Part shown: positions 12,909 through 50,347 of the stretch, one piece after another
Position numbering within the stretch: position 1 is the first letter of the stretch
Layout: every line of letters starts with the position of its first letter
DNA from: Dehalococcoidia bacterium
GTDB lineage: Bacteria; Chloroflexota; Dehalococcoidia; UBA6926
Direction of reading: 5' to 3'
Assembly (NCBI GenBank): GCA_965243495.1
Contig: CBDEUZ010000007.1
Location: 154,450-218,449 of the forward strand
DNA: 64,000 bases
Program-made: the position numbers and the translations under genes
The notes under the pieces: generated by a model
Databases searched by the model: none
Told to the model about the DNA's origin: nothing
The model's input: only the letters and a program-made list of their open reading frames with translations

Positions 12909-15900
12909 ATGGCGAGAACCCCCCGTTCTGGCTTGATTATTCTTTTGATTGCCGCGGCAATCATTCTTATCGTCTTCGCTTGCGAAAGACCAAGCCCCAC
13001 CCCTACCCCGCCGCCTCCCTCCCCTACACCGACGCCCGAGCCGACACCCGAACCAACCGCCATAGAGCGCCTTGCCTGGTTCGATGCCCGACCTGACACC
13101 GCCCATTGGATCGCGTGGAACGCTCTCCGTCGGATGGCCATCGATGACGAACCGCTCACCCAGCAGATCGCCTCTCTCGACTGGGTGGTTGACGGCATAA
13201 CTGCTGAAGAAGCCGGTGCCCTCGATGATGTGTCGTGGCTCCTTCGGGAGAATCCTGCCATCGCCGACACAGCCCTGAACTTGCCGTGGATGGCGACGGA
13301 CAGCGTCATAAGCGCGGAAGACCGGCGCGCCCTCCGTGCAATTCGCGCCGCAGCGTCCACCGACGAGGACCTTGGCGCAACCCTCGCCGGGTATGAGTGG
13401 CTGACGAACGGACTCACGCAGGATGAGGCAGAGGCGCTGGAAACCATTGGAGAAATCGTCACTCCCGGCTTCACCACCCAAACCGCAACTGGCATCGGCG
13501 CAATCCGGTTAGACCGCTCCGGTACCGCAACACCGCCGTCGGTCTCCCCACGAACGCTTCAGTTCGCCACGTCTGTCTCTCAATTTCCCTGGATGCAAGA
13601 CGACGTCACCTCGCTTGAGACCGTGTTCATTGCCAACCTCAATGGACTAGTTGAAACGGCTGGCAGCATGCACGCAGGTGCAGCGGACACCATCGTGTCC
13701 TATGACTGGATACAGGACGGGATAGAGCTGAATGAGTCGCGTTCACCGCTTCTCTACGAACCGCTCTTCAGGGCGGCAGGTGTGGAAGATACCGACATCC
13801 TGCCGATCATGCTCGAATATGAGTGGATTGCGGATGGACTGGGTTCTAACGAATCACGCGCTATCAGCGGGCTCACACCCCTCCTCAACGCCAGTTCTTC
13901 GGATGACGTAGACGTTATGCGAACCATGGTGAGCTACCCATGGCTCACGGATTCAATCGAAGGCCCTGAATATACTTTGCTAGATGAATTCGCTTACCTC
14001 CTGCGCTTGGAAGAGTCTGCAGGCGCGACATATCGCCAGACCGTACTCGGCTATGACTGGCTCCTAGACGACGTCACCCCAACGGAAATCGCATTCATTC
14101 ATGAACTAACCGAACTCACCCGGACGGCCGATGATTTCCACGCAGAGTCTCTTGACATCGTCGCGTCATACGACTGGGCAGTAGACGGCATTGACGAGCC
14201 AGAGGTTGCTTTCTTGCGGCGCCTCACCCTCCTGTTTGAACACGCAGGAACCGAAGACGCAGTAGCCCTGCAAACCGTGCTTGGATACGAGTGGATCACG
14301 GATGGCGTGATTGTGTCCGAGTTAGACTTTGTGAGGAAAATTGCCTACCTCTTTAACGCAAGTTCTCAGGAAGATGCTCAGGCAATAACCATTATCTCTG
14401 AGTACCCGTGGCTGGCAGATTCTGTGGAGGGCTTTTATGAGAGGGACGCGTTGCGAGCGTTCGATGCTCTGTTGCGACCACAGGGAAGCCAGTACGTAGT
14501 CCCCCAGGAAACGATTCTCGCTTTCGATTGGGTATCCGACGGCATGAGCGTCTATGGGGACGTCTATGAGCATATTGCTCTGGCTGATCTTGTGGAAACG
14601 ATACTTCTCCTTGCCTCGGAACGACCGGAACTCATGGTTTCTTTTGTGGAATCCGAATGGCTCTTGGACAGTCTCTCATTTGAGGAACGTGATGGCCTAT
14701 CCAGAGTCAGAGACATAGTTCCTGACATAAAACTGTTGAACCGATTGGTAGACGCCCTTCCTTACACTGTCAACGATGAGCTGACGAACATATCGGTTGG
14801 AGACGAATGGTTGCAGGGTCAATTCTCCGACTCATTCCTTGAGGAACTTCACTCGACCCAACAGATACTGGCGCAACGCATTTCTCTTATCGATCGAGTC
14901 AGCAACGCCTTGGATGTCGCCCCCGAATTTGCTTGGTTGCAAGACGGACTTTCGCCTATGGAAATGGAATGGCTGCTGGCTTTCAATGAATTGTTTGATG
15001 TAATCGGCCAACCGGAAGCTCTTAACTTCGCTTCCCTGCCATGGTTTCAGGACAACATTGATGCCTTTGACATGAGTGTTATGAACCTCTTGATGTGGAG
15101 AAAACTTATCTTGAGGCCGGAAATTGCCGACTTGAATCTGTCTGCTGATGGTATCTCTGAAAATGATGGTTTCTACTTGATGGCTCTCGGCGATGCCCTG
15201 AACCGTTCCGAGCACCAATATCAGGATCTCCTCAACCAACATCACATCGCCAGCCGAACGCTCACCATGCCCTTGGCGGGAGACATTGACGTTACAGTGG
15301 TTCGTCACACACCTTTTCCAAACAACGACCCTACCCTTGATCTGACAGAGGACATCGCACTCCAGCTAGAAGAGTTCATGGGAGTACCCTTCCCTTTGGA
15401 CAACATCCTGATACTCATACTGGAAGCCAGTGTCCGCAACGGAGAGAGACCGATGATCGGCGTCGCCTATGCCATCTGGGGTCATCTCGTCATGGTTCCC
15501 CCTCGCCATAATCCCGGCTTCCACCTTGCCGTCTTCCATGAGGTTAGTCACTTGTACTGGGGCGGCCACACCGGAGCTCCACCCTGGTGGACGGAGGGGG
15601 CCGCAGGCTTTCTGCCGGACATCGCGCGAGACGCCCTGGGGCATGAAACCCTGGAAGAGCGACGCAAGCAATTGCTCTGGGACACGAGCCGTGAATGTTG
15701 GAATCAGGGCATCAGAACTGTTTCCACTTACTACCATTTACAGAGAACTCAACCCCACGTTGCGCAAGATCGCGGCATCTGCATATACGCCTTGGGAGAG
15801 ATTTTCCTGGTGGAGATGTACCTCCTGCTCGGCCATGACGCCACCTCCACCGCCATGCGACAGCTCTACGTCGATGCCCGTGATTCCGGGTGGCTTGACC

Positions 15901-16031
15901 CCATCACCGATCAGAAAATCTATGATGCCTTTCGGGCCAACACCCCGGATGACAAGGTGGAAGAGTTCCGCAAACTGTTCCTCCGCCTCCACGGCGGCGC
16001 CAACGTCAACCTCTCCGAATCAACCACCTAG
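12909..16031 (+). CDS. Large lipoprotein: signal peptide/lipobox, PT-rich linker, about 16 tandem ~40-aa repeats, C-terminal M1-like (gluzincin) zinc-metallopeptidase domain
   Basis: N-terminus MARTPRSGLIILLIAAAIILIVFAC has lipobox VFAC, followed by PSPTPTPPPPSPTPTPEPTPEPT. The repeat motif x-Y-[DEP]-W-[ILV]-x-D-[GSD]-[ILV]-x3-E recurs about 16 times between aa 95-710. The C-terminus has AVFHEVSHLYWGGHTGAPPWWTEGAAGF, i.e. HExxH(x)nWWxEG as in M1 aminopeptidases. GC is visibly lower than flanking DNA over about 13.9-15.4 kb. Confidence 0.7.
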   Translation: MARTPRSGLIILLIAAAIILIVFACERPSPTPTPPPPSPTPTPEPTPEPTAIERLAWFDARPDTAHWIAWNALRRMAIDDEPLTQQIASLDWVVDGITAEEAGALDDVSWLLRENPAIADTALNLPWMATDSVISAEDRRALRAIRAAASTDEDLGATLAGYEWLTNGLTQDEAEALETIGEIVTPGFTTQTATGIGAIRLDRSGTATPPSVSPRTLQFATSVSQFPWMQDDVTSLETVFIANLNGLVETAGSMHAGAADTIVSYDWIQDGIELNESRSPLLYEPLFRAAGVEDTDILPIMLEYEWIADGLGSNESRAISGLTPLLNASSSDDVDVMRTMVSYPWLTDSIEGPEYTLLDEFAYLLRLEESAGATYRQTVLGYDWLLDDVTPTEIAFIHELTELTRTADDFHAESLDIVASYDWAVDGIDEPEVAFLRRLTLLFEHAGTEDAVALQTVLGYEWITDGVIVSELDFVRKIAYLFNASSQEDAQAITIISEYPWLADSVEGFYERDALRAFDALLRPQGSQYVVPQETILAFDWVSDGMSVYGDVYEHIALADLVETILLLASERPELMVSFVESEWLLDSLSFEERDGLSRVRDIVPDIKLLNRLVDALPYTVNDELTNISVGDEWLQGQFSDSFLEELHSTQQILAQRISLIDRVSNALDVAPEFAWLQDGLSPMEMEWLLAFNELFDVIGQPEALNFASLPWFQDNIDAFDMSVMNLLMWRKLILRPEIADLNLSADGISENDGFYLMALGDALNRSEHQYQDLLNQHHIASRTLTMPLAGDIDVTVVRHTPFPNNDPTLDLTEDIALQLEEFMGVPFPLDNILILILEASVRNGERPMIGVAYAIWGHLVMVPPRHNPGFHLAVFHEVSHLYWGGHTGAPPWWTEGAAGFLPDIARDALGHETLEERRKQLLWDTSRECWNQGIRTVSTYYHLQRTQPHVAQDRGICIYALGEIFLVEMYLLLGHDATSTAMRQLYVDARDSGWLDPITDQKIYDAFRANTPDDKVEEFRKLFLRLHGGANVNLSESTT

Positions 16032-33371: not shown

Positions 33372-34140
33372 ACTTTTCTCTGCCATTCCAAGCGCAACTA
33401 AAGGGTCCCCGTTCGGGAGCCCCCTCGTCATTCCCGCGAAAGCGGGAATCCAGTGCGGCGCGTAGCGCCGCCATTAATCCCCTCTCCCTGAGGGGGAGGG
33501 TTAGGGTGGGGGTGACTCCCCCGTCATTCCGAGCGCAGCCGAGGAATCCAAAGACTCCACAGACCGCCAAAACCGGAACGCGGCACACCAAACCCAACGA
33601 CGACCCTCCCCGGCATCGCCGCCCTCCAGGACGCGGACTAGTCCCCGTTCGCCCTGAGCCTGTCGAAGGGGGCTCCCGAACGGGGAACCAACATCCCCTC
33701 CCCCTCGTCATTCCCGCGAAAGCGGGAATCCAGTGCGGCGCGCTGCGCCGCCATTAATCCCCTCTCCCTCAGGGAGAGGGTTAGGGTGAGGGGGGCTGTA
33801 ATTCCGAGCGCCCTTACTGTCATTCCGAGCGCAGTCGAGGAATCCAAAGCCTCAATAGACCGCCAGAGCAGGAACGCGCATCCGAACCCAACGGCCGCCC
33901 GCACCGGAACGTGAACTTTGGCCGTAGCGCAGCTACCGAGAGCCGTAACGCAGTTACCCCGTTCGCCCTGAGCTTGTCGAAGGGGGCTCCCGAACGGGGA
34001 CCTAGCTCCCCTTCGTCATTCCGGCGCAGGCCGGAATCCACCCCGTGGCCCGTAGGGCCACAACACTCTCCTGCAAACCTTTGTGCTATTCTCAAATTCG
34101 GTGTACAGCGGCATCAAGAGTACAAAGGAATAATTTGAGG
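33372..34140. repeat. Mosaic repeat array (A, D, C, E, B, A, D, C, E, F, B, A-variant)
   Basis: Two successive composite blocks A-D-C-E at about 33420-33600 and 33705-33900, then F+B at 33911-34005 and an A-variant (cgtcattccggcgcaggccggaatcc) at 34015-34045. The D copies contain (G3N3)3G3 tracts. Confidence 0.85.
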
Positions 34141-35196
34141 ATGGAAACCTTTGACGAAGTAATACGGGCAGCGCTGGAGGCAGCCCGGCAGCGTGAAGGC
34201 TATATCGGCCCGCTTGAGGACTTTACGATTGCCCTTGCTAGCAGAGACTGGCAGGAGAGAGACCCCGTTATTGAAGGAATACTCACCGACATCAGGGCTG
34301 GCTCACAAGAACCTCTGACACTATGGCATGCACAGCATCATGGTGTTGAGGACACGATTCTCCAGAAGTGGAACGAACCCCTGCGACTTCTTGATCTCCT
34401 GATTGTCCTTGCTGGGCAATTCGGCACAGATTTCTACAGGGAACGCATAGCAACAGTGGAAGACGGTGGTGAGCGTTTACTGCTCACGGTGCTCACTGAG
34501 CTACACGCCAGAGCTTGCCAAATATCCTCCGCTATACATCTGCTGCTGCGTTCAGGATATGCGGATGACGCTCACGCGCGATGGCGCACACTGCACGAGA
34601 TTTCAGTAATAGCCAATTTTGTGAAGGACGGCGGGGCATCACTTGCTGAAAGATACCAAGAGCATGGAACCATACAGCGGTGCAAGGAATTACGTGCATT
34701 CCGTGAACGTAGTCAGTTATTCGGGAACGAGCCGGAATGGACTGTTGCTGACCATTGGTTCGAGGAACGCTATGAATTGCTTATACAAAAGTATGGCTCG
34801 TCCTTCAAGGAGGACTACGGCTGGGCTGCGGATGCACTCGGCAAGAAGAAGCCAACTTTCAGAGACATTGAGAATAACGTGAAGATAGCCGATACAGTGC
34901 CTATGGCGCTGATGCGCGCGCAATACAGGATGGCAAGCGCAAATGTTCATGCATCCGCACACGGCACTCAATTTCGGTTAGGACTGGGTAAGCATAGTAG
35001 CACTGGAATCCTGTTTGGCCCTAGTATTCAAGGTCTAGGTGACCCAGGGTTTGCGACTGCAAATGCTCTTTGTGAAACGGCACTTACGCTTCTTCAGACA
35101 AGATCGAATGAAGACGATGTCGTGCGCATCTCGATACTGACGAATCTCACCGAGACAACTTCGAACGTATTCCTCACAACGCCGGACGATGATTAG
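34141..35196 (+). CDS. Hypothetical protein (351 aa), lower-GC, first gene of the two-gene island
   Basis: RBS GAGG before ATG 34141. No recognisable catalytic family from sequence. It contains an R-x4-H stretch (RWRTLHE), weakly reminiscent of HEPN-type motifs. GC is about 52% against about 65% in flanking DNA. Confidence 0.55.
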   Translation: METFDEVIRAALEAARQREGYIGPLEDFTIALASRDWQERDPVIEGILTDIRAGSQEPLTLWHAQHHGVEDTILQKWNEPLRLLDLLIVLAGQFGTDFYRERIATVEDGGERLLLTVLTELHARACQISSAIHLLLRSGYADDAHARWRTLHEISVIANFVKDGGASLAERYQEHGTIQRCKELRAFRERSQLFGNEPEWTVADHWFEERYELLIQKYGSSFKEDYGWAADALGKKKPTFRDIENNVKIADTVPMALMRAQYRMASANVHASAHGTQFRLGLGKHSSTGILFGPSIQGLGDPGFATANALCETALTLLQTRSNEDDVVRISILTNLTETTSNVFLTTPDDD

Positions 35197-35240
35197 GCTG
35201 GTAACCGTCCTGAACTTGTCCATGAAAGAGGCAGCACCCT

Positions 35241-36884
35241 ATGACGACCGACTGGAAAAACAAACTCTACTTCGGCGATAACCTCCCCATCATGCGGGAG
35301 CACATCCCGGACGAGTCCGTCGATCTCATCTACCTCGATCCGCCCTTCAACTCCAACGCCACCTACAACGTCCTCTTCCGCGAGCACGATTCCTCGGAGT
35401 CCGCCGCCCAGATTCAGGCATTCGACGATACCTGGCACTGGAGCACGGACGCCGAATGGCATTACCAGCAGGTCGTCACCACCGGCCCGCGAAAACTCGC
35501 GGACATGCTTGGGGCCATGCGCACATTCCTCGGCCAGAACGACATGATGGCCTACCTCACCATGATGGCCCCGCGCATGGTGGAACTGCACCGCGTCCTC
35601 AAGCCCACCGGCAGCATCTACCTCCATTGCGACCCCACCGCCAGCCACTACCTCAAGCTCCTCATGGACGCCGTGTTCGGGCCGACAAGGTTCAGGAACG
35701 AAATCACGTGGAAACGCTCTCATCCCAAGGGATTAGCATTCACTCGCTTCGCATCAAACCATGACGTGATTTTGGTGTACGGCTCCACCAGCGATGCCAC
35801 CTGGAATGCAATGTATACGGAGAACCCTCGCGCCCACGAGCAATACAACCTCATTGAAGAAGGCACAGGACGTAGATACCAGTTGACCAGTCTATTGAAT
35901 CCAAATCCAGATCGCCCAAACCTGACATACGAATTCAAGGGCGTAACGAGAGTATGGCGATGGACAAAAGAACGCATGGAACAAGCTGATAAAGACGGGC
36001 TAATCGTTGTTCCGCGTGAGGGACAAGGGGTTCCGAGACTGAAGAGGTATCTTGATAAACAGGAAGGGATTCCAGTAGGCGACACTTGGGATGACATCCC
36101 AATTGCGGCTGGCAAAGAGCGCCTCGGCTATCCCACCCAGAAGCCCGAGGCCCTGCTTGAACGCATCATCTCCGCCTCCAGCAACGAGGGCGATGTCATC
36201 CTCGACCCCTTCTGCGGCTGCGGCACCGCCGTCGCCGTCGCGGAACGCCTGAACCGCAAGTGGATCGGCATCGACGTCACCCATCTCGCCATCTCCCTCA
36301 TGCGCAGCCGCCTGCGTGACTCGTTCGGCGATGACCTGTCCGACTATGAGGTCGTCGGCTCCCCCGCGGACGCGGAGAGCGCCCGCGCACTGTCGCTTGA
36401 GGGCGGCAACACCGGCCGATACCAGTTCGAATACTGGGCGCTCGGCCTGGTTGAGGCCCGCCCTGCCCGCGACATGAAGAGGGGCGCGGACGCCGGTATC
36501 GACGGCTACATCAACTTCTTTGACGACAACTCCGGCAAAGCCAAGTCCGTCATCGTCCAGGTCAAGAGCGGTAACGTGGGCCGCAACGTCATCGCCACCC
36601 TGAAGGGCGACATGGAACGCGAAAACGCCGAAATGTCTCTGCTGATCACCTTGCGTCCGCCCACCAAACCGATGCTTGATGAGGCTGCGTCCGCCGGATT
36701 CTACACGCCGGAGGCCTACCCGGACCGACAATTTCCCCGCGTCCAGATCGCCACCATTGAGGACATCCTCAACGGCAACGGCCCCGCGATACCCCAACTC
36801 GGCCTCTCCCAACCCCCGACCTTCCGCCGCGCCCCCCGCCGCCGCCGAACAGACTCCACATCCCCCCGCATGAACATCGGCTAG
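35241..36884 (+). CDS. Beta-class N6-adenine/N4-cytosine DNA methyltransferase fused to a C-terminal Mrr-like (PD-(D/E)xK) nuclease-type domain
   Basis: Motif IV LIYLDPPFNS near the N-terminus, motif I/X ..GYPTQKPEALLERII..VILDPFCGCGTAV.. after a central target-recognition region (beta-class order). The C-terminal approximately 190 aa carry ..DAGIDGYINFF..SVIVQVKSGNVGRNVIATLKG..LLITL.., matching the Mrr catalytic-domain pattern. The central TRD segment (about 35700-36110) is about 48% GC while both flanks are about 65%. Confidence 0.8.
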   Translation: MTTDWKNKLYFGDNLPIMREHIPDESVDLIYLDPPFNSNATYNVLFREHDSSESAAQIQAFDDTWHWSTDAEWHYQQVVTTGPRKLADMLGAMRTFLGQNDMMAYLTMMAPRMVELHRVLKPTGSIYLHCDPTASHYLKLLMDAVFGPTRFRNEITWKRSHPKGLAFTRFASNHDVILVYGSTSDATWNAMYTENPRAHEQYNLIEEGTGRRYQLTSLLNPNPDRPNLTYEFKGVTRVWRWTKERMEQADKDGLIVVPREGQGVPRLKRYLDKQEGIPVGDTWDDIPIAAGKERLGYPTQKPEALLERIISASSNEGDVILDPFCGCGTAVAVAERLNRKWIGIDVTHLAISLMRSRLRDSFGDDLSDYEVVGSPADAESARALSLEGGNTGRYQFEYWALGLVEARPARDMKRGADAGIDGYINFFDDNSGKAKSVIVQVKSGNVGRNVIATLKGDMERENAEMSLLITLRPPTKPMLDEAASAGFYTPEAYPDRQFPRVQIATIEDILNGNGPAIPQLGLSQPPTFRRAPRRRRTDSTSPRMNIG

Positions 36885-41439: not shown

Positions 41440-42315
41440 ATGAACTTCACAAAGATGCACGGTACAGGCAACGACTTCATTGTTGTCGAAGGCGGTTCTG
41501 CTGAGGCCGATTCCACGAATTGGCCGAAGGTCGCGCGGGAGGCGTGCAGCCGCCGATTCGGCGTGGGCGCGGACGGAATCCTTGTCATTCGCCCCTCAGA
41601 TGACGCCGCCCTGCGCATGCAAATCTTCAACCCGGACGGCTCCGAGGCGGAGATGTGCGGCAACGGCATCCGCTGCGTCACCAAATACGCCATCGAGCGC
41701 GGTGTTGTCGACAGCTCGGCGCTCCGCAACGAGGCCGGTCTGCCAATCGAGACCCTTGGCGGGCTGATGACTGTTTGGCCACAGAACGGAAGCGTGGGCG
41801 GAGCCATCGAGGCCGTTCGCGTCGGAATGGGCGCGCCGATACTTCAACCCCGTGAAATCCCCGTCGCCGTGGATGGTCCGGGACCTGTACAGGGCCACGC
41901 GCTAGAGATAGGCGGCTATGCCCTGAACCTTTCCTTTGTTTCCATGGGGAATCCCCACGCCGTCGCATTCATCGACACGCCGGTTGCGGACTTCCCGCTC
42001 GAGACCATCGGGCCGATGGTGGAGAATCACTCCCTGTTCCCAGAGCGCGTCAACTTTGAGATTGTCAATGTCCAGTCTCGCGAAGAGATAACCATGCGTG
42101 TGTGGGAGCGTGGCGCGGGCCTCACCATGGCGTGCGGCACAGGCGCTTGCGCCACGGTTGTCGCGGCGCGTATCGCCGGTTTCGTGGATGATTGCGTGTC
42201 AGTGGAGTTGCCGGGTGGATCGCTCACCATCGAGTGGGACGGCAACCCGGACAGCCAGGTCTACATGACCGGCCCCGCCACAACGGTCTACGCCGGCCAG
42301 TTGCTCACGAGCTAG
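41440..42315 (+). CDS. dapF: diaminopimelate epimerase
   Basis: MNFTKMHGTGNDFIVV.., active-site Cys motifs ..EMCGNGIRC.. and ..MACGTGACA.. The ORF track start at 41239 overlaps miaA. Confidence 0.85.
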   Translation: MNFTKMHGTGNDFIVVEGGSAEADSTNWPKVAREACSRRFGVGADGILVIRPSDDAALRMQIFNPDGSEAEMCGNGIRCVTKYAIERGVVDSSALRNEAGLPIETLGGLMTVWPQNGSVGGAIEAVRVGMGAPILQPREIPVAVDGPGPVQGHALEIGGYALNLSFVSMGNPHAVAFIDTPVADFPLETIGPMVENHSLFPERVNFEIVNVQSREEITMRVWERGAGLTMACGTGACATVVAARIAGFVDDCVSVELPGGSLTIEWDGNPDSQVYMTGPATTVYAGQLLTS

Positions 42316-43588
42316 AGCGCTCTCCGGTTCCGGTTTCGGCGGTAGTTCCTGATTCGACGTACGTTTGCCGGAGGCGGGCAGGTAGCTGCGGCCGCTTCAT
42401 CGTCATATACATGTACAGCGAGATAATGGCCATCATCCCGAGCGCGAAGAATGCCCAACGGTAGCCGTCAGCGCCGAATTCGTCATACATGAAACCGGCG
42501 AAGACGGGAGCAAAGATCCCTCCGAGCGCCGTGAAAGTAAATTGAAGTCCTAGCAACTGCCCGTACACCTGGCGTCCAAAGAGTTCGCCCAGGAGAGCAG
42601 ACCGCGGCGGGTTGCCGAGGCCGAACCCGAATCCAAAGAACACTGCAAAGAGCACGGCGGTAATCGGATCCCGCGCCAGGAAGAGCAGCACTGCGCCGAT
42701 TATCTGCATCGTGAACGAGATCGAGACAATCTTACGCTTGTCATACATATCGGCAAGAATGCCGCCCAGGATACGAGCCGGGAAACTGGAGAGCGGGAGG
42801 AGTGTCACTAGAAACGTGACCCACCCTGTAGAAAAACCAAACGACTCCCACAACACAAACTGGTGAATGATGAACGAGCCGAAGAAGATGAACCCGAAAA
42901 TGTTCGCCACAACGTACTTCCAGTACGTCGTCGTTCTAATCGCTTCCTTTACCGTGAACGTCGTATCGGAGTAGCGCTCGTCCGTGTCCATTTCCGCGTG
43001 TCGAGCGGCCTCCTCATCGCTCATGCCATCCGGCCTCAGCCCGTACTTCTCGGGAGCGTCACGCATCATGAGGCCGAGCGGCAGCCCGACGACAAACGTC
43101 GCTATCCCGAGATAGAACAGCGCATCTCTCCACGCGAAGAGGGCGATCAGGCCCACGACGAGCGGCACAATCAGGGCACTCACTCCCGCTCCGTAGGACA
43201 CGATGGCCATGGCAGTGCCACGCCGACGGATGAACCAGGCGTTGACGGCGGTGTTGACGGTAAGGAAGGAGCCGAATGCGAGGCCAAGGGCCATCACTGC
43301 AAAGGCCGCAAAGAATTGCCAGAGCTCCTGCACGAAACTCAACCCAATGAATCCACAGCCGAGAATAAACATCCCGCCAAGGACGGACTTTCTGGGCCCA
43401 AATCGATCGACGACGTATCCAACCAGGGGCCCGAAGATGCCCTGCTCCATGCGCTGAAACGCAAAGGCGATGGAGGCCACGCCCGCCGGCCACCCAAACT
43501 CGTCAAGAATTTCCGCAAAGAACGGCGAGAAGCCGTAGAAGAACACACCGGCTGTGTAAAAGAGGACGCCGAAACTGGCAATCGCCAA
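42305..43588 (-). CDS. MFS transporter (OFA-like)
   Basis: 12 TM with MFS motifs; N-terminal region similar to the four upstream paralogs. Confidence 0.8.
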   Translation of the reverse strand: MAIASFGVLFYTAGVFFYGFSPFFAEILDEFGWPAGVASIAFAFQRMEQGIFGPLVGYVVDRFGPRKSVLGGMFILGCGFIGLSFVQELWQFFAAFAVMALGLAFGSFLTVNTAVNAWFIRRRGTAMAIVSYGAGVSALIVPLVVGLIALFAWRDALFYLGIATFVVGLPLGLMMRDAPEKYGLRPDGMSDEEAARHAEMDTDERYSDTTFTVKEAIRTTTYWKYVVANIFGFIFFGSFIIHQFVLWESFGFSTGWVTFLVTLLPLSSFPARILGGILADMYDKRKIVSISFTMQIIGAVLLFLARDPITAVLFAVFFGFGFGLGNPPRSALLGELFGRQVYGQLLGLQFTFTALGGIFAPVFAGFMYDEFGADGYRWAFFALGMMAIISLYMYMTMKRPQLPARLRQTYVESGTTAETGTGERSSS

Positions 43589-43745
43589 CCACCAGCCGTA
43601 GAAAACGCGGTTGGGGTGGATCAGAACCGATAATGCAGCGTTTACGGCGACCTCCCAACAAAAACCAAAGCCCGCGAACGGGCGGATTGAATAAGTATAG
43701 CCCCGCTACGCTATCGGGCGGGCATTTCCTATGTAACCAGTCTGA

Positions 43746-45044
43746 CTATGGGGATGCCGGTGGCGGCGCAGTGGATTGCCTCGGCCGAGTAACGGTTAGT
43801 GTCAACGGTACCGAAAGACTCAGAATCGCGGCTACAATTACGAACCCGATCACGTAGCTGTCCGTCTGATCGTAGAGCCAGCCGATAGCAACGGGCGACA
43901 AGATGGCCGGTAGCGAGGCCAGACCCTGTTGGATACCGGCTACACGTCCGAATATTGCGAGTCCCCAATATTCGGCTTGGAGCGCCAGCCGTACCGATGA
44001 TTGTGAGCCGATGGCGCTCCCCAGGAGAAATCCAGCGAGTATCGTCAGCCACGGAATGGTAGACAAGGGTATTAGCACAATTGCGATCCCCTGCACGGTA
44101 ATTCCGATTGCAAGCACCACTCGCTTGTCCACATAGTCGGCTATCGTCCCGGCGATGACGCGGATGGGAATGCTGGAAGCTGTTTGCCAAGCGAACATGA
44201 AGGCGATGAATTCTTTGGAGAATCCATTCTTCTGCAGGATGAGCGCCTCATACGTGACGATTGCCCAGGACCCTCCCAACAACGCGCTCGCGATGACGTA
44301 CTGCCAATAACCCCGGCTGCGAAGCACATCCCGCAGTGTGAAGTTGGCTTCCGGCAAAACGTTCGCGCGAGACGACGGCGCGGTTTGGTTCTCGGGAGCT
44401 TCGCCGCCGTCAGGTTCCATCCCATAGTCCTGCGGCCTGTTGCGGATGAGGGGAATCAGGAGCATCCCGACAACCCAGAACCCCACACCCGCGCCAAACA
44501 AGACAGACCGCCATCCAAACTCTGGGATTATCCAGGCCCACACCCCTGCCAGCAGCCCGGACATGCCCGGCCCAACAATCATGATGCCGTTGGCACGTCC
44601 TCGAAATCGCCTAAACCATGCGTTGATCGCCGCAGCCGTGACGATGAACGACCCCGCGCTCAAACCGAACGCAAAGACGATGAAGACACCGTAGTACTGC
44701 CAAATATTGTTGACCTGGCTCATCAGCATGCAGCCGCCACCGGACACGAAGTAGCCGACTATCAGAATCTTGCGAGCGCCATATCGATCGACCAGGTAAC
44801 CGGTCAAGGGAGCTGTGATGCCGGATTCAAGCCGTTGTAACGAGGGGCCAATGCCTGCCAGCGCTTGCGACCATCCAAAGTGCGTCACCATCGCCGCGAA
44901 GAAGTTTGAGAAGCCCCAGAAGCCGATGCCGTCTGTGTAGGCGGCGAGGCCCGTGCCCGACAGCGTCACCCACCAGCCGTAGAAAACCTGCCGCGGATGT
45001 CTGGCGAACATCCACGCCGTCATAACGGTTTTCTGGGTCCTCAT
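43746..45044 (-). CDS. MFS transporter (OFA-like), tandem paralog 1
   Basis: MRTQKTVMTAWMFARHPRQVFYGWWVTLSGTGLAAYTDGIGFWGFSNFFAAMV.. is near-identical at the N-terminus to the next gene upstream. Confidence 0.8.
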   Translation of the reverse strand: MRTQKTVMTAWMFARHPRQVFYGWWVTLSGTGLAAYTDGIGFWGFSNFFAAMVTHFGWSQALAGIGPSLQRLESGITAPLTGYLVDRYGARKILIVGYFVSGGGCMLMSQVNNIWQYYGVFIVFAFGLSAGSFIVTAAAINAWFRRFRGRANGIMIVGPGMSGLLAGVWAWIIPEFGWRSVLFGAGVGFWVVGMLLIPLIRNRPQDYGMEPDGGEAPENQTAPSSRANVLPEANFTLRDVLRSRGYWQYVIASALLGGSWAIVTYEALILQKNGFSKEFIAFMFAWQTASSIPIRVIAGTIADYVDKRVVLAIGITVQGIAIVLIPLSTIPWLTILAGFLLGSAIGSQSSVRLALQAEYWGLAIFGRVAGIQQGLASLPAILSPVAIGWLYDQTDSYVIGFVIVAAILSLSVPLTLTVTRPRQSTAPPPASP

Positions 45045-46342
45045 GTCCTGGCAAGCCTCGTTCCATCAGCGGTGCTGCTCTTCGGGCGTGTCATCGTGAG
45101 CGTCAACGGAACGGAGATGCTCAGAACCGCAGCAACAATCATGAATCCAACAAGGTAGCTGCCCGTCTCGTCGTAGAGCCAGCCGATGGCGAACGGCGCA
45201 ATGATGGACGGTATGGACGCCAGTCCCTGCTGAATGCCAACGACACGCCCAAAGATTGCCAGGCCCCAATACTCAGCTTGTAAAGCAAGCCTCACAGATG
45301 ACTGTGAACCGATCGCGCTGCCCAGCAAGAACCCCGCTATCATCGCGATCCACAGTTCAGTCGCCAGAGGGAACAGCACAATAGCTACACCCTGCACGAT
45401 GATGGCAACGGCAAGGACAACGCGCTTGTCTATGTAGTCGGCGACTGTGCCTGCAACCACACGGATCGGAATACTGGAGGAGGTCTGCCAGATGAAAACG
45501 AGTGCAATTGCCCTGTCCGTTAAGCCATTCTCACTCAGCATCAGAGCCTCGAACGTGATGACCGACCAGGACGCGCCGAGCAGTGAACTAGCGATTACGA
45601 ACTGCCAGTATCCCCGGCTTCGTAGCACATCCCGCAGGGCATAGTTGGCATCAGGCAGTACGCTGCTGCGGGCAGTCGGAGCGGTCTCACTTTCGGGCGC
45701 CGGGCCGCCGTCCGGTTCCATCCCATAGTTCTCCGGCCTGTTGCGAATCAGGGGAATCAAAGCCATACCGACGATCCAGAATCCGATACCGGCGGCAAAC
45801 AGCACCGTGCGCCAACCGAATTCCGGTATCACCAGCGCCCAGAATCCAGACAACACTCCCGACAGTCCCGGTCCCACAAGCATGATGCCGTTCGCGCGTC
45901 CCCGATAACGACGGAACCATGCATTGATCGCCGCCGACGTCACAGTGAAAGCGCCCGCGCTGAGACCGAACGCAAGAATGATGAATGAACCATAGTATTG
46001 CCACAGGTTTTCGATCTGGCTCATCAGGATGCAGCCGCACCCCGCCGCGATGTAGCCGATAACCAGCACCTTTCGAGCTCCGTAGCGATCCACCATCGCG
46101 CCGGTGATTGGCGCGGCAATGCCGGATTCAAGCCGATGCAGGGACGGACCGATAGCCGCGATGGCTTGAGGCCAGCCGAAATGGCGGACTATTGCCGCAA
46201 AGAAATTGGTGAATCCCCAGAAGCCGATGCCGTCCGTGTAGGCGGCGAGACCGGTTCCCGCCAGCGTTACCCACCAGCCGTAGAAGACCTGCCGCGGATG
46301 CCGCGCGAACATCCACGCCGTCATAACGACCATTTCGGTTCT
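45041..46342 (-). CDS. MFS transporter (OFA-like), tandem paralog 2
   Basis: (V)RTEMVVMTAWMFARHPRQVFYGWWVTLAGTGLAAYTDGIGFWGFTNFFAAIV.. GTG start at 46342 or ATG at 46333; the longest ORF extends to 46609. Confidence 0.8.
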   Translation of the reverse strand, partial: RTEMVVMTAWMFARHPRQVFYGWWVTLAGTGLAAYTDGIGFWGFTNFFAAIVRHFGWPQAIAAIGPSLHRLESGIAAPITGAMVDRYGARKVLVIGYIAAGCGCILMSQIENLWQYYGSFIILAFGLSAGAFTVTSAAINAWFRRYRGRANGIMLVGPGLSGVLSGFWALVIPEFGWRTVLFAAGIGFWIVGMALIPLIRNRPENYGMEPDGGPAPESETAPTARSSVLPDANYALRDVLRSRGYWQFVIASSLLGASWSVITFEALMLSENGLTDRAIALVFIWQTSSSIPIRVVAGTVADYIDKRVVLAVAIIVQGVAIVLFPLATELWIAMIAGFLLGSAIGSQSSVRLALQAEYWGLAIFGRVVGIQQGLASIPSIIAPFAIGWLYDETGSYLVGFMIVAAVLSISVPLTLTMTRPKSSTADGTRLART

Positions 46343-47634
46343 CACGCGGCGAGTCTCACAGTATCGGCAGCGCCTCTCTGTGGGCGGGTCATGAGAAGAA
46401 CCATGATTACGGCTAGAGCAAGCGGAATCACGACGGTCATAAACGCTATGCGGTAATCGTAAACATCCGCGAGCCAGCCGACCAGCACGGGTGAGATCAA
46501 ACCGCCCACCGCCCCTGCCCCAACCTGCAAACCCATCAGCGAGCCGAATATGCCACGGCCCCAATAGTCGCCTTGTAATGACAGCCGCGCCGCGTTGCTG
46601 CCTCCCCACCCCGTGCCATAGATGATCTCAAAGATGATTGCCACCCAGATGTTGGCGATGAAGATGAACAGAATGCCCCCTGCAAGCTGGAAGCTCAGCA
46701 TCGTTGCGACCACTAACTTCTTGTTGAACCTGTCCGCGAGCGCGCCGGAGAAGAAACGCATCGGGATGCTGGCGACGGTGAACACAACGACCATCGCACC
46801 GGCTGTTTCCATGGAGAAGCCGTAGCTGACAAGCGCAGGGATGTGGTGGACGACCATCGCAGTGATGGCCACCTGCTGCATGGAGAGAGCGCCGACATAG
46901 AGCAAGTATGACCGACTCAGCAGGATGGAGCGCACCGCTCCGGGCGACGGTTCAGGCTCAGCCGCCTCTCCGGCCTGACCTGATTCCGAGTCGGCTGTTT
47001 CCGGTGGATCACCATCCATACGCAAGCCGTAGTGCTCCGGCCGTCTCCTCAGAACCATCGCAAGCGGGATGCACGTTATCCATGTGCCAATTCCCGTGAA
47101 CAGGGCGGCGTCGCGCCAGCCATACTCGCGTATCAGCACGACCAGCAGCGCCGTCATGATGCCCCCAAAGCCCGGCCCGATGAAGGTCAGGCCCAGCGCC
47201 TTGCCGCGATTGCGCAGGAACCAGTTGCTGATTGCCGTCGCCACCATGACGTAGGATGTTGCGCCCATGCCGCTGCCGATGAGAACGAACGCGACATAGT
47301 ATTGCCACGCATGCTCAACTTGGCTCAGGACAATGAATCCCGTCCCGCCGCTGAACATCGCTACGGCCGTGACAAAGCGAGGCCCTAACCGGTCCGTAAG
47401 GGCGCCAATCGTTGGACTCAAAATCGCCGTGAACACTGCCATCATCGCGGGTCCGCGTGAGACCTGCTCACGCGTCCAGTTGAGATCGAGGCGGATGCTG
47501 TCAAAGAACGCGCTGAACCCAAAGAAACTGACGCCCGTCGTATAGAACATCAGGTACATGCCGGACAGCGCCATCCACCACCCATAGAAAAGGCGTGGAC
47601 GACGCCGGCGCGGGGTTGAGACACCGGCACTCAT
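46342..47634 (-). CDS. MFS transporter (OFA-like)
   Basis: ..RLFYGWWMALSGMYLMFYTTGVSFFGFSAFF.. 12 TM. Confidence 0.8.
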   Translation of the reverse strand: MSAGVSTPRRRRPRLFYGWWMALSGMYLMFYTTGVSFFGFSAFFDSIRLDLNWTREQVSRGPAMMAVFTAILSPTIGALTDRLGPRFVTAVAMFSGGTGFIVLSQVEHAWQYYVAFVLIGSGMGATSYVMVATAISNWFLRNRGKALGLTFIGPGFGGIMTALLVVLIREYGWRDAALFTGIGTWITCIPLAMVLRRRPEHYGLRMDGDPPETADSESGQAGEAAEPEPSPGAVRSILLSRSYLLYVGALSMQQVAITAMVVHHIPALVSYGFSMETAGAMVVVFTVASIPMRFFSGALADRFNKKLVVATMLSFQLAGGILFIFIANIWVAIIFEIIYGTGWGGSNAARLSLQGDYWGRGIFGSLMGLQVGAGAVGGLISPVLVGWLADVYDYRIAFMTVVIPLALAVIMVLLMTRPQRGAADTVRLAA

Positions 47635-49043
47635 GCCGCCACCTGCGGCTCGTTCTCAGCCGACGGGGTTCTGTCCCGAGGCTTCTTCATTAGCAGGACA
47701 AGGAGGAGGGCGATGGAGAGAAGGGCAACGACGACATAAGGGATAACTTCACTTTGTGTCTCCGGTGTGACAAATGACAGTAATTCTCTGAAAAGCACAA
47801 ACACACCAAGTGAAGTAGCGGCCAGTATACCCAGAGCCAGACCGAAACGTTCGATACCCCAATATTCGACTTGCAGCACAATAATTGGAACACAGAGGAT
47901 TCCAGCGCCAGTGCCGATCACTACAGCAAGTGCCAAAGTACTCCAATCCCCGATGCCTATGTATATTGCAGTCACACATATCAGTTGCGTAACCATCGCG
48001 CCCATCACAACTCGTCGAGCGCCATATAAATCCACCAAAACACCAGTTACGACTACTGCAAGAACACCCACCAACACCACTTCGGGTTGAGGCTCTTGAA
48101 ATAGCCAAAGTCCTTCCGCCAACCGCGCCGGAAAGTAGTGTGGGGAGAAACTATAGAGACCTGCTCCAATGAGGACACGAGGAAGCAACAGAATCGCGCT
48201 TGTCTGACAGGCGCTAGCCAAGAGTAGGAGCAGGTGGGGATGATTAAGTAAAACTGAACGCAATGGTAATGACGATTCAGGAGTTATCTGAACAGTTGGC
48301 TTCTGTTCTTTCGCTACCTCAGGATCATCTGAGACAAACTGCCCTTTGCTATGAGCGAATACATCATTGGCGAGGAGGCGTCTTAGCAGCAAATAGGCAA
48401 GTATGATGCCCGGAACGAACAAAAAAGCAATATCGATGAGCGAAAGGGGCTGGAATCCGGGTACATCAGGCCGGACAACCCGAGCGAGATCGGAAGGCAG
48501 AATCCAGTACAGAAAACGATGAATACGTGGCAAAGGAAGTATCGTCGCAAGAATGACGGCGGCCAACAACGCTGAAAGAGCCCTTCCACGATTCGAAATG
48601 AACAGCGCTGTGGTCGCCTTGGCAAATCCAATCAGCAGTGCCCCTGCCAGAGCGCCATCAATTACTAGCCAGGCGAGGTACAGTACCCAGTTATCCTCGA
48701 TCAATTCAGCAGCTACAAATATGACTGCCGCTCCGCTCATGATTGGAATGACCGCAGAGACCAGTCTCATACGATCCGCCGCATACCCGGCAATGGCAGC
48801 CACAATGATTGCGAGCGAGAGAAACAGGTAGATGTCGAACGCTGATGGAAACGCGTCGGACCCCGCTCTTGTGCTGGCTCTATCCATTTCAAAGATAAGG
48901 TCCGTATGTGTCTGTGCCCTGATCGCCACAGCCAACAAGAAGAAACCAACCAGCACCACCCACCAGCCGCGATAGAGGCGGCGGCTGGTCAGCCACTCAG
49001 GAAGCAGGGGCTCGGTTCGATAATCCCTATCCTGCTCGTTCAT
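47631..49043 (-). CDS. MFS-like polytopic membrane protein (divergent fifth member of the array)
   Basis: ..RRLYRGWWVVLVGFF.. resembles the FYGWW N-terminal motif of the neighbours, with many TM helices. The ATG at 49043 was chosen; the longest ORF reaches 49187. Confidence 0.55.
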   Translation of the reverse strand: MNEQDRDYRTEPLLPEWLTSRRLYRGWWVVLVGFFLLAVAIRAQTHTDLIFEMDRASTRAGSDAFPSAFDIYLFLSLAIIVAAIAGYAADRMRLVSAVIPIMSGAAVIFVAAELIEDNWVLYLAWLVIDGALAGALLIGFAKATTALFISNRGRALSALLAAVILATILPLPRIHRFLYWILPSDLARVVRPDVPGFQPLSLIDIAFLFVPGIILAYLLLRRLLANDVFAHSKGQFVSDDPEVAKEQKPTVQITPESSLPLRSVLLNHPHLLLLLASACQTSAILLLPRVLIGAGLYSFSPHYFPARLAEGLWLFQEPQPEVVLVGVLAVVVTGVLVDLYGARRVVMGAMVTQLICVTAIYIGIGDWSTLALAVVIGTGAGILCVPIIVLQVEYWGIERFGLALGILAATSLGVFVLFRELLSFVTPETQSEVIPYVVVALLSIALLLVLLMKKPRDRTPSAENEPQVAA

Positions 49044-49165
49044 GCCCCATGCTAGGCGCGGGCGTATCCCAAACACAAACATAAGGTGGCAGTCAGAAGG
49101 ATTGCTACAATAGGTTTCAGCGCGCAGTTCACTCGTCAAACCAGATACAGAGGAGACCCAGCCAA

Positions 49166-50347
49166 ATGCCCCTACCTGAGCAGGCACGTCGCGTCGCGCA
49201 GCTACCCCCGTACCTCTTTGTGGAGGTCACACGCAAGATCAACGAGAAGCGCGCCCGCGGCGAGGACGTCATCTCGCTCGCCATCGGCGACCCTGACCTG
49301 CCCTCCGCCCCGCACGTCATCAGCGCGCTCGTCACATCACTGGAGGATGTAGCCAACCACCGCTACCCGGAATCCGACGGCCTGCCGGCCTTCAGGCGCT
49401 CAGTCGCCGACTGGTACAAGAAGCGGTTTGGTGTGGAGTTTGATCCCGATACAGAAGTCCTGCCCACCATCGGCTCGAAGGAAGGCATCGCCCACATCGC
49501 ATGGTGTTACATCGACCAGGGAGACATCGCGCTGGTGCCGGACCCCGGCTACCCCGTCTACAGTGTCGGCACCATGCTGGCTGGGGGCGAGTCGTACTAC
49601 ATGCCGCTCCACCGGGAGACAGGCTTCCTGCCAGACCTTGATGCCATCCCTGAGGACGTGGCCCGGAAAGCCAAGCTCCTATGGATCAACTACCCCAACA
49701 ACCCGACGGCTGCGGTGGCCGAGCTGGATTTCTATGAGCGGGTCGTCGAGTTCGCCAAGAAGTACGATATCGTCGTCTGTCACGACGGCCCCTACACAGA
49801 GGTCGCTTTTGACGGATACAAACCCGTGAGCTTCATGCAGGTGGACGGGGCAAAGGATGTGGGCATTGAGTTCCACTCACTGTCCAAGTCGTACAACATG
49901 ACAGGCTGGCGAATCGGCATGACCGTCGGCAACGCGGAGGTCACCAACGCGCTGATGCGTATCAAGTCCAACGTGGACTCCGGCGTGTTCCAGGCCGTGC
50001 AGTTGGCAGGGATCGCTGCGATTGAGGGACCGCAGGACATCATCGACCACCACAACGCCGTCTACCAGGCAAGGCGAGACAAGCTTATCCCTGCCCTGCG
50101 CAAGATGGGCCTCGAGGTCGATCCTCCCAAGGCGAGCCTCTACGTCTGGGCTAAACTGCCGGATGGTGTCTTATCCGGCGACTTCGCGTCACGCCTCATC
50201 GAAGAGGCGAACGTCGTTGTGACGCCCGGCCGCGGCTACGGCGAGGCGGGCGAGGGATATATCCGCTGCTCACTGACCGTCAGTGACGACGCCCTTGATC
50301 GCGCGCTGGAGCGGCTAAGCAACGTCAACATCTCTGATCTTGTCTAG
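49166..50347 (+). CDS. Class I/II PLP aminotransferase, LL-diaminopimelate aminotransferase-like
   Basis: ..[34 protein letters not shown].. pattern typical of DapL-type enzymes. PLP Lys region ..[14 protein letters not shown].. dapF lies 7 kb upstream. Confidence 0.75.

Follow-up and report, generated by a model that had tools for sequence, protein, structure and literature searches.

The systems closest to the locus described here are SfMCT of Syntrophobacter fumaroxidans (6G9X/6HCL; NF049980), a bacterial SLC16/MCT homologue, and the OFA and OxlT transporters (TIGR00890; TIGR04259, 8HPJ), the second basic residue of OxlT being a Lys in TM11. In SfMCT, Y119, N276, and R280 are ligand-binding residues, and R280 and N276 have ligand-binding roles (PMC6573034). 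Furthermore, SAR202 genomes are rich in MFS transporters, with 42 COG0477 proteins in strain JH545 (PMC10444878; PMC5596340), and because these genomes are unusually MFS-rich, paralogue expansion is a known trait of the class. On an array like the one below in sponge-associated Dehalococcoidia, our literature search found nothing, only general statements on SAR202 MFS expansion. Here we analysed a window of 64 kb (the whole stretch of DNA under study) from a Dehalococcoidia genome, in which five consecutive minus-strand MFS open reading frames (ORFs), G1 to G5, occupy 42305-49043 between dapF and the DapL gene (Table 1). The locus is a case of ordinary gene-family turnover, in which a three-gene ancient set is accompanied by two old extra copies that have been kept or lost.

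Table 1. Features of the transporter array and its flanks (window positions)
Feature	Position	Strand	Basis or remark
dapF, diaminopimelate epimerase	41440..42315 (about)	+	TIGR00652, 276.9 bits vs cut-off 114.65; conserved right-hand flank
G1, core MFS paralogue (MCT/OFA-like)	42305..43648	-	Pfam MFS_1 1.3e-42; SfMCT structure 6g9x 1.4e-19
G2-G1 spacer	43649..43745	-	97 nt, conserved across clade
G2, core MFS paralogue	43746..45044	-	ATG 45044; orthologue in all related loci
G3, old accessory G2 paralogue, patchy	45041..46345	-	Tree and bootstrap; only L006, L011, L021
G4, core MFS paralogue	46342..47634	-	Pfam MFS_1 6e-45; orthologues 96% down to 60% in syntenic three-gene arrays
G5, slot MFS family member	47631..49043	-	Operon's first gene in window's genome; 470 codons
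Divergent DapL/MFS control region	49044..49165	.	Alignment of 21 loci
dapL, LL-diaminopimelate aminotransferase	49166..50347	+	TIGR03540, 605.2 bits vs cut-off 593.25; conserved left-hand flank

A preliminary description of this DNA had placed the array between dapF and a dapL-like gene. Both flanks were upheld, and the aminotransferase proved to be a true DapL, scoring above the TIGR03540 cut-off. We mapped synteny with tblastn over 22 loci and with gene calls, and 20 Dehalococcoidia MAG loci share the dapF-to-DapL position. dapF is syntenic in all 20 array-carrying loci (L001-L004 and L006-L021), and dapL, which is transcribed divergently from the array, is 77-98% identical in all syntenic loci. 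A G4 homologue (44% identical) in L023 also sits divergently beside an aminotransferase, but a different, MocR/MppQ-like one. Because this enzyme is only 25% identical to DapL, the shared neighbourhood is coincidental, and a functional transporter-aminotransferase link was rejected.

Copy number had been proposed as a check on the array, and it does vary among the 20 related loci, where this position holds between 3 and 7 genes. The core, G4-G2-G1, is present in every genome; G1 has an orthologue in 20/20 loci, and G2 orthologues are 73-97% identical (47% in L003). The preliminary description had also held that conservation with an unchanged gene count across distant relatives would mark the array as ancient rather than recent. 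Because the core persists even in a relative that is only about 60% identical, most of the array is ancient by that criterion, although the gene total is not constant. The variation lies partly in what we call the slot, a variable position directly 3' of the operon leader that holds G5 in the window's genome. The slot is empty in ten loci (L001, L002, L003, L007, L009, L010, L011, L014, L020, and L021), where G4 becomes the operon's first gene. It holds one gene in L004, L006, L008, L012, L013, L015, L016, and L018, four genes in L017, and a frameshifted remnant (pseudogene) in L019, and the single slot genes belong to at least four deep types. No further paralogues were found within the 64-kb window.

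All five genes were confirmed as MFS transporters, since their Pfam MFS_1 (PF07690) scores (G1, 146 bits; G2, 124; G3, 116; G4, 154; G5, 51) exceed the gathering cut-off of 33.4 bits. G5 is the weakest match, and only in its C-terminal half. The FYGWW-type N-terminal motif reported for the five genes is indeed common to them, in the form [FY][YR]GWW, and in each half of 77/77 core and slot proteins motif A has its Asp and Arg/Lys without exception. G1, G2, and G4 align full-length to SfMCT, and the PDB matches are SfMCT, MCT1/2, and OxlT, with 20-25% identity between core proteins and structural templates. The label "OFA-like" given earlier is apt insofar as, among characterised proteins, the SfMCT/SLC16 and OFA groups are the most closely related. 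However, NF049980 (SfMCT) scores are 148 (G1), 112 (G2), 117 (G3), 125 (G4), and 26 (G5) bits against an equivalog cut-off of 320. TIGR00890 (OFA) scores are 112, 48, 80, and 70 bits for G1 to G4, with no match for G5, against 374.85, and TIGR04259 (OxlT) scores are 37-72 bits against 335. Because these values fall far below the OFA and SfMCT cut-offs, the label denotes resemblance and not membership. The array genes are an uncharacterised MCT/OFA-like MFS subfamily.

Next, we considered the age of G3, which had been described as a recent tandem duplicate nearly identical to G2 over at least the first 90 residues. G2 and G3 are not near-identical: protein identity is 75% overall and 83% over the first 90 residues, and DNA identity overall is 73%. 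The core paralogues G4, G2, and G1 are 33-36% identical to each other. In all four genomes with both genes, dS between G2 and G3 is 1.05-1.57 (about 1.5 for the window pair, with dN/dS of about 0.11), although values above 1 are near saturation and rough only. Orthologue dS among the G3-carrying genomes is 0.26-0.76. In distance-based neighbour-joining trees, G3 was monophyletic in 100% of bootstraps and grouped with the G2 of its own carrier subclade in 0%. In 83.5% it fell outside crown-group G2, the support for its exact branching point being moderate (72-84%). Judged from these sequences, G3 is an old copy of G2 and not a recent duplicate. If G3 were instead a new tandem copy of G2 that arose in the window's genome, as part of a recent adaptive expansion confined to its lineage, this might account for the first 30 codons of the pair, where identity reaches 97% for protein and 89% for DNA. 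Such an expansion would also fit a duplicated unit that takes in the junction, as the G4/G3 and G3/G2 starts lie in similar sequence, and the differing copy number between relatives. This expansion is nevertheless highly improbable given the overall divergence, the dS, the absence of nesting with carrier-subclade G2, and the occurrence of G3 at 96-98% identity in three other species, the only other genomes with an orthologue.

Probably, then, the array is an ancient core operon that underwent early tandem expansion and differential loss, with a core that carries organic anions. The clade is one of uncultured Dehalococcoidia with small genomes (about 1.6-2.4 Mb) that are probably associated with sponges. 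In it, a long-standing MCT/OFA-like MFS operon would have become fixed between dapF and dapL, with the three ancient paralogues G4-G2-G1 as its invariant core. Tandem duplication around the base of the crown group would have produced G3 from G2, and slot genes would have arisen at the operon's 5' end, probably from its first gene, G4. Lineages would then have lost different copies, leaving zero, one, or four slot genes and usually no G3, and the window's genome would be one of the few to retain both G3 and one slot gene.

Differential loss calls for at least five independent G3 losses and for the very close L013-L016 genomes to show four slot states. Because of these many losses and slot states, lateral exchange between relatives could explain part of the pattern. 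In its full form, this alternative attributes the patchiness of G3 and of the slot to homologous recombination across the conserved flanks, that is, to cassette exchange between related Dehalococcoidia, with the conserved leader and the G4 start as recombination anchors. Core dS among L013-L016 is only 0.17-0.35, the dS between the window and L011 is lower for G3 (0.26) than for G2 (0.76), and the G3 carriers are not cleanly monophyletic in core-gene trees, all as such exchange would predict. However, same-type slot pairs from distant genomes show dS similar to that of core genes (0.65-1.33 versus 0.97-1.4), as for vertical descent, and L017 demonstrates that an ancestral array could have held several genes. 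Single-gene dS estimates are also noisy, and no mobile-element genes occur in or adjoining the array. We therefore regard cassette exchange as unlikely to be the general explanation and retain early expansion with differential loss.

The slot family, which is restricted to this clade, aligns with the core family (hhalign probability, 99.9%; E, 3e-36; 403 columns), and G4 is its nearest core relative. The operon's first gene, whether slot or G4, always starts at the same leader ATG, and G4 of the outgroup L002 begins MNAQD, resembling the MNEQD of slot genes. G5 has a 100% copy in the source genome, and its nearest other relatives are at most 52% identical; only 12 G5-like representatives at E<=1e-30 were found among 1.84 billion, and the G5/slot family had no sequence match in the PDB. 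AlphaFold2 modelling of G5 with an alignment of eight sequences gave an unusable structure (pLDDT, 40.8; pTM, 0.27).

Could G5 be a decaying, dispensable paralogue on its way to loss instead of a working transporter? Its GC3 is 0.52 versus 0.69-0.80 in neighbouring genes, and slot genes in general have low GC3. Slot genes also evolve about 3-fold faster than the core, with dN/dS (0.25-0.38) 3-5 times higher than in core genes (0.03-0.11; G3 orthologues, about 0.05). Together with the loss of both cavity arginines (see below), the ten empty slots, and the L019 pseudogene, these features would suit decay. Yet the slot dN/dS is well below 1, and G5 is an intact ORF with 12 hydrophobic peaks in a 6+6 layout by a crude hydropathy scan. 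Besides the motif-A Asp/Arg pairs, about 50 further columns are invariant across the slot family, and G5 stands first in the operon behind a conserved leader and ahead of an ATGA junction. Decay is thus a doubtful reading of G5. We think it a rather remote prospect that the slot genes, as a clade-specific, rapidly diversifying MFS family that arose from the operon's first gene and lost both anion-binding arginines, supply closely related symbiont species with determinants specific to host or niche, each species keeping a different deep type and cassette-like replacement occurring between the leader ATG and the G4 start. If true, the slot could serve the uptake of a non-anionic metabolite peculiar to the host, or could act in sensing or some other role besides transport.

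The earlier statement that most of the genes are joined by overlapping stop/start codons applies to three of the four junctions (G5/G4, ATGA; G4/G3, GTGA; G3/G2, ATGA), and L001, L006, and L021 show the same 4-nt overlaps. G2 and G1 are separated by a spacer instead. With this exception, the genes have the shared strand and the conserved stop/start overlaps of an operon with translational coupling. Upstream, a conserved leader, CCCGCGCCTAGCATGGGGC (49062-49041, minus strand), runs directly into the first ATG and backs the G5 start at 49043 (MNEQD), which is predicted to be near-leaderless. By eye, we assigned a promoter-like TTGTGT-18 nt-TAGCAT in the divergent control region and, on the plus strand upstream of dapL, an extended -10, TGCTACAAT (about 49103-49111), with GAGGAGA; a sigma-70 consensus scan did not call these promoters. 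A single promoter and leader may drive [slot]-G4-[G3]-G2, with the overlaps allowing translational coupling, and G1 would follow the conserved spacer. That spacer carries a -10-like TATACT (43699-43694), a GGGAGG (43656-43651), and a terminator-like match consisting of a GCCCG-UUCG-CGGGC hairpin (43683-43670) followed by a T-run. The hairpin showed no covariation as a structured RNA, and Rfam detected no families in the 64-kb window except three tRNAs. The spacer probably sets G1 apart for separate expression or works as an attenuator.

Some gene boundaries merit comment. The start of G3 is not at 46342, as first described, but at GTG 46345, which overlaps the G4 stop, or at ATG 46333. An alternative start for G2 is ATG 45023 (MTAWMF). 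The sole canonical start codon of G1, TTG 43588, lies downstream of its FYGWW motif; there is third-position variation upstream of this TTG, and the translated region appears to begin just 3' of a Shine-Dalgarno sequence, near 43648. A frameshift or an upstream ORF as the source of the missing start codon was rejected because the stop and slippery elements needed are not conserved. At its other end, G1 converges on dapF with an 11-bp overlap of the 3' ends.

To compare substrate-binding residues, we tabulated alignment columns across the family. The TM8 and TM10 arginines are both present in 67/67 core proteins, and neither occurs in any of the 10 slot proteins, G5 included, in agreement with the hhalign comparison of slot and core. 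Hydrophobic or neutral residues replace them in slot proteins, with Val at the R280 position in G5. The S-I-P-M-R of G4 TM8 aligns with SfMCT N276..R280. Of the SfMCT ligand residues Y119, N276, and R280, only R280 is kept in G1-G4, and because Y119 and N276 are not conserved, lactate specificity is unlikely. These residues suggest that the core likely serves organic-anion transport. The four core-type proteins would bind an anionic carboxylate substrate via the TM8 Arg, as do SfMCT, MCT1, and OxlT, the TM10 Arg may contribute to substrate binding, and each paralogue probably has a different organic-acid substrate. Slot proteins keep the MFS gating motifs; under relaxed constraint, their substrate is probably non-anionic or different in some other way. 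The proposal made at the outset, that small organic acids are taken up or exported adaptively, is therefore plausible for the four core-type genes and weakened for G5, which lacks both cavity arginines.

MFS direction is unreadable from sequence, so the array might instead consist of drug or metabolite exporters and not nutrient importers. There are weak NCBIfam matches to efflux families such as Tet, EmrD, and MdtG, and the neighbourhood includes an ArsR-family regulator and a pair of ABC exporter genes. However, the efflux matches are partial, whereas the best matches are full-length SfMCT/MCT/OFA symporters or antiporters, and no TetR- or MarR-type regulator is adjacent. Exporters of this kind are improbable.

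If differential loss from an expanded operon is right, a small-genome Dehalococcoidia clade has long kept a three-transporter organic-anion operon with an end that can expand and contract. The locus would then be a compact natural example of how genes in a lineage of uncultured symbionts are born, diverge rapidly while losing their substrate-binding residues, and are differentially lost, and it offers a few concrete candidates whose transport could be assayed in a heterologous host.

Taken together, these comparisons place the array nearest to SfMCT, which is the best full-length match for G1-G4 (112-148 bits in NCBIfam; E of 1e-14 to 1e-19 in the PDB), both being 12-TM MFS proteins. Like SfMCT, the 67 core proteins have a TM8 Arg, invariant among them and equivalent to R280, which in SfMCT binds the substrate carboxylate. 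Unlike SfMCT, they have Ser for N276, Phe or Ser for Y119, and an extra invariant TM10 Arg; G4 has Trp for Y331 and Asn for F335, and G5 and the slot family are without R280. OFA and OxlT are the second-best NCBIfam family matches (G1 versus the OxlT structure, 9e-7) and, like the core proteins, follow the general logic of meeting anionic substrates with basic residues of the C-domain cavity. They differ in that array proteins reach only 48-112 bits against the OFA cut-off of 375, and they may also differ in the position of the second basic residue, which is the TM10 Arg in the core and the TM11 Lys in OxlT. The array is no new kind of system, as MFS paralogue expansion has already been described for marine Dehalococcoidia. 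Whereas the SAR202 reports are genome-wide counts, the expansion here concerns a single syntenic operon whose core is conserved and whose end varies like an accordion.

Five consecutive minus-strand ORFs (G1 to G5, with G5 first in the operon and G1 last) lie between plus-strand dapF and a plus-strand aminotransferase gene. All five share an [FY][YR]GWW motif and pass the Pfam MFS_1 cut-off, G5 weakly and through its C-terminal half only. The dapF product is a real diaminopimelate epimerase (TIGR00652). Because the aminotransferase scored 605 bits against TIGR03540 (cut-off, 593), it is a real LL-diaminopimelate aminotransferase, and the preliminary description, largely right about five MFS genes in this setting, had correctly called it dapL-like. 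G1, G2/G3, and G4 are 33 to 36% identical to each other in protein sequence, and G5 is 22 to 25% identical to the other four. No further paralogues of the array genes were found elsewhere within the 64-kb window.

Positions of the array genes and other features (window coordinates unless a related locus is named)
Feature	Position	Strand	Source or content
G1	42305 to about 43648	minus	ORF listing
G2	43746-45044	minus	ORF listing
G3	45041-46345	minus	ORF listing
G4	46342-47634	minus	ORF listing
G5	47631-49043	minus	ORF listing
G2-G1 spacer	43649-43745	minus	TATACT box, hairpin, U-run, GGGAGG
G1 start region	43588-43656	minus	no in-frame ATG, GTG, or TTG from GGGAGG to FYGWW (window genome and most relatives)
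Divergent control region	49041-49111
Palindromic repeat	942, 7372, 7504, 12600, 23161, 28187, 32027, 33148, 33430, 33710, 36981		ATTCCCGCGAAAGCGGGAAT
Low-GC island	34045-36884		52-55% GC
1040-aa ORF	12909-16031		52-55% GC at 14-16 kb
Slot genes, L017	4092-9983
Slot remnant, L019	8443-10001
Repeat insertion, L007, L008, L017, L020	around 8500-10000
G4 homologue, L023	8632-11302

Using contig look-ups and a genome-collection scan, we gathered 22 loci, all from uncultured Dehalococcoidia; L005 duplicates L001, and L022 is without flanking genes. Chloroflexota/Dehalococcoidia metagenome-assembled genomes contain a graded series of G4 orthologues, from 96% identity down to about 44%. For the relatives, the chromosome-scale record or the largest contig measures about 1.6 to 2.4 Mb. 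Some have sponge-metagenome-style bin names, from which we infer a probable sponge association. A tblastn map showed the order miaA-dapF / G1 G2 [G3] G4 [slot] / dapL at 20 of the 22 loci, the slot being the place between the dapL-side leader and G4 that G5 fills in the window genome. The core G4-G2-G1 is never missing, even in L002 (71 to 77% identical) and L003 (47 to 61%), distant loci whose flanking genes are just 51 to 77% identical. Apart from the window, G3 occurs at just three loci (L006, L011, and L021), where it is 96 to 98% identical to the window copy. The slot is empty in ten loci and holds a single G5-like gene, only 37 to 45% identical, in L006, L008, L012, and L013; a single gene of another type in L004, L015, L016, and L018; four genes in L017; and a frameshifted remnant in L019. 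Because G3 and slot content vary, the position carries 3 to 7 MFS genes, which supports the wider notion that copy number varies, and the five-gene layout is shared by L006 only.

Two of these loci deserve separate mention. In L017, G4 is preceded by four tandem slot-family genes, bringing the MFS genes to seven; three of these slot genes are each the nearest relative known for single slot genes in other genomes, and this array may resemble an ancestral expanded state. The L019 remnant is about 50% identical to the L004 slot gene, and since it is spread over three reading frames, it is a pseudogene caught during loss. On a more distant Chloroflexota contig (L023), a 44%-identical G4 homologue is divergent from an adjoining aminotransferase gene. 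With its MocR/MppQ-like character and 25% identity to DapL, this is a different enzyme, and the likeness of arrangement is coincidental.

G2 and G3 had been described as near-identical products of a recent duplication. The near identity holds only at the extreme 5' end, which takes in the coupling junction (first 30 codons, 97% protein and 89% DNA identity). Overall, the pair is 75% identical in protein and 73% in DNA; identity is 83% over the first 90 residues and varies between 57 and 100% among later 30-codon windows. For every one of the four genomes with both genes, G2-G3 dS was 1.05 to 1.57 and dN was 0.15 to 0.18 (Nei-Gojobori), whereas orthologue dS within these genomes was 0.26 to 0.76. 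The G2/G3 dS is comparable to the core-gene dS between the window and L017 and L019 (1.1 to 2.0), the deepest members of the crown group (which excludes the outgroup L002). In a neighbor-joining tree, the G3 clade (bootstrap, 100%) branches after L002 and outside all crown-group G2, with 83.5% for crown G2 excluding G3, 72.5% for G3 plus crown G2 excluding L002, and 0% for G3 with the G2 of the carrier subclade. A dN/dS of about 0.05 to 0.11 indicates purifying selection on both genes. From the dS values and tree position, we conclude that the duplication is old, which refutes the recent-duplication reading, and that the patchy presence of G3 is due to loss or exchange.

Beyond one 100%-identical entry, presumably from its own genome, G5 matched database proteins at no more than 52% identity. 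When 1.84 billion representatives were searched with a profile, only 12 proteins reached E<=1e-30 and 26 reached E<=1e-10; the first core-family match was a G4 orthologue (7e-22). Profile-profile comparison showed that the slot family is homologous to the core family over its full length (probability, 99.9%; E, 3e-36; 403 columns). G5 has 12 hydrophobic segments in a 6+6 layout; its AlphaFold model was of too poor quality for use. There are at least four deep slot types, 25 to 67% identical to each other. Same-type genes of distant genomes have a dS of 0.65 to 1.33, similar to that of core genes (0.97 to 1.4), and a dN/dS of 0.25 to 0.38 versus 0.03 to 0.11 in the core. GC3 is low in all slot genes (0.52 to 0.64 versus 0.63 to 0.88 in the core). 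L013, L014, L015, and L016, which are very close (core dS, 0.17 to 0.35), hold three slot types and one empty slot. The first MFS gene, slot gene or G4 alike, always starts at the ATG after CCCGCGCCTAGCATGGGGC, and the L002 G4 start (MNAQD) resembles the MNEQD of slot genes. Together, the distribution, divergence, fixed leader ATG, and L002 start suggest that the first gene, G4, was duplicated close to where the crown group begins and so gave rise to the slot genes, which then underwent quick divergence and differential loss; exchange between relatives may also have played a part.

The dapL-MFS intergenic region is conserved among relatives. On its dapL side, TGCTACAAT appears to serve as an extended -10 and GAGGAGA as a Shine-Dalgarno sequence. 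Just 5 nt separate the TAGCAT box of the MFS operon from the first ATG, suggesting that the first gene is leaderless or nearly so. In several relatives, but not in the window genome, this region carries an inserted 20-nt palindromic repeat, ATTCCCGCGAAAGCGGGAAT, of which the window has 11 copies (0 expected by chance) and which looks like a REP- or MITE-like family. Directly downstream of a repeat cluster, a low-GC island contains genes for a hypothetical protein of 383 aa and a DNA methyltransferase-like product of 547 aa, the latter with a DPPF motif; this island is possibly mobile or of the restriction-modification kind. GC is also low within a 1040-aa ORF that has a signal-peptide-like N terminus, many Y[DE]W...DG repeats, and, at the C terminus, an HEVSH motif (HExxH-like); the product may be a secreted repeat metalloprotease.

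Within the array, the G5/G4 and G3/G2 junctions are ATGA overlaps, and G4/G3 is a GTGA overlap provided that G3 starts at GTG 46345 (an ATG lies 12 nt downstream); such 4-nt overlaps are also found in relatives. The G2/G1 junction differs in having a spacer of about 97 nt, conserved as a whole across the clade. Its TATACT box is kept across the clade, its U-run is confined to the crown group, and GGGAGG is a Shine-Dalgarno sequence. The hairpin (GCCCG-UUCG-CGGGC) is terminator-like yet downstream of the -10-like box, and it showed no covariation and no Rfam match. The FYGWW motif of G1 lies upstream of its sole canonical start codon, TTG 43588. In 20 genomes, most of the variation in the 17 codons that lead from the Shine-Dalgarno sequence to the motif falls on third positions, so this stretch seems to be translated, and G1 initiation may be non-canonical.

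The best NCBIfam matches of G1 to G4 were the SfMCT L-lactate transporter model (112 to 148 bits; cut-off, 320) and the OFA family (48 to 112 bits; cut-off, 375), and the best PDB matches were SfMCT, MCT1/2, and OxlT. With every score under the curated cut-off, the array proteins are relatives, not members, of these families. In SfMCT, the partner of the substrate carboxylate is R280 (TM8), positioned by N276, and that of the lactate hydroxyl is Y119 (PMC6573034). We mapped alignments and tabulated residues for 77 proteins (67 core and 10 slot). The R280-equivalent Arg (in S-x-P-x-R) and a TM10 Arg are each present in 67/67 core proteins; slot proteins have Leu, Met, or Val at the former and Ala, Ile, Asn, Ser, or Val at the latter. 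Motif-A Asp and Arg/Lys are kept in both halves of both groups. The N276 position is Ser in the core and Gly, Ser, or Thr in the slot; the Y119 region (aligned column or neighbour) is Ser/Ala followed by Phe (G1 to G3) or Tyr (G4) in the core and varied, mostly Leu, in the slot. We infer from these residues that core proteins carry anionic organic acids, not specifically lactate; slot proteins probably differ in substrate class or are reduced in function.

Expanded sets of MFS paralogues have already been described in marine Dehalococcoidia/SAR202, and tandem paralogous transporters and birth-and-death turnover are ordinary. The particulars of this array are a core of three ancient genes whose place between dapF and dapL is fixed, an old duplicate (G3) retained patchily, and a fast-evolving, clade-restricted derivative family that has lost both cavity arginines. 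Taken together, they make a neat but unsurprising example, and the proteins form an uncharacterised MCT/OFA-like MFS subfamily.
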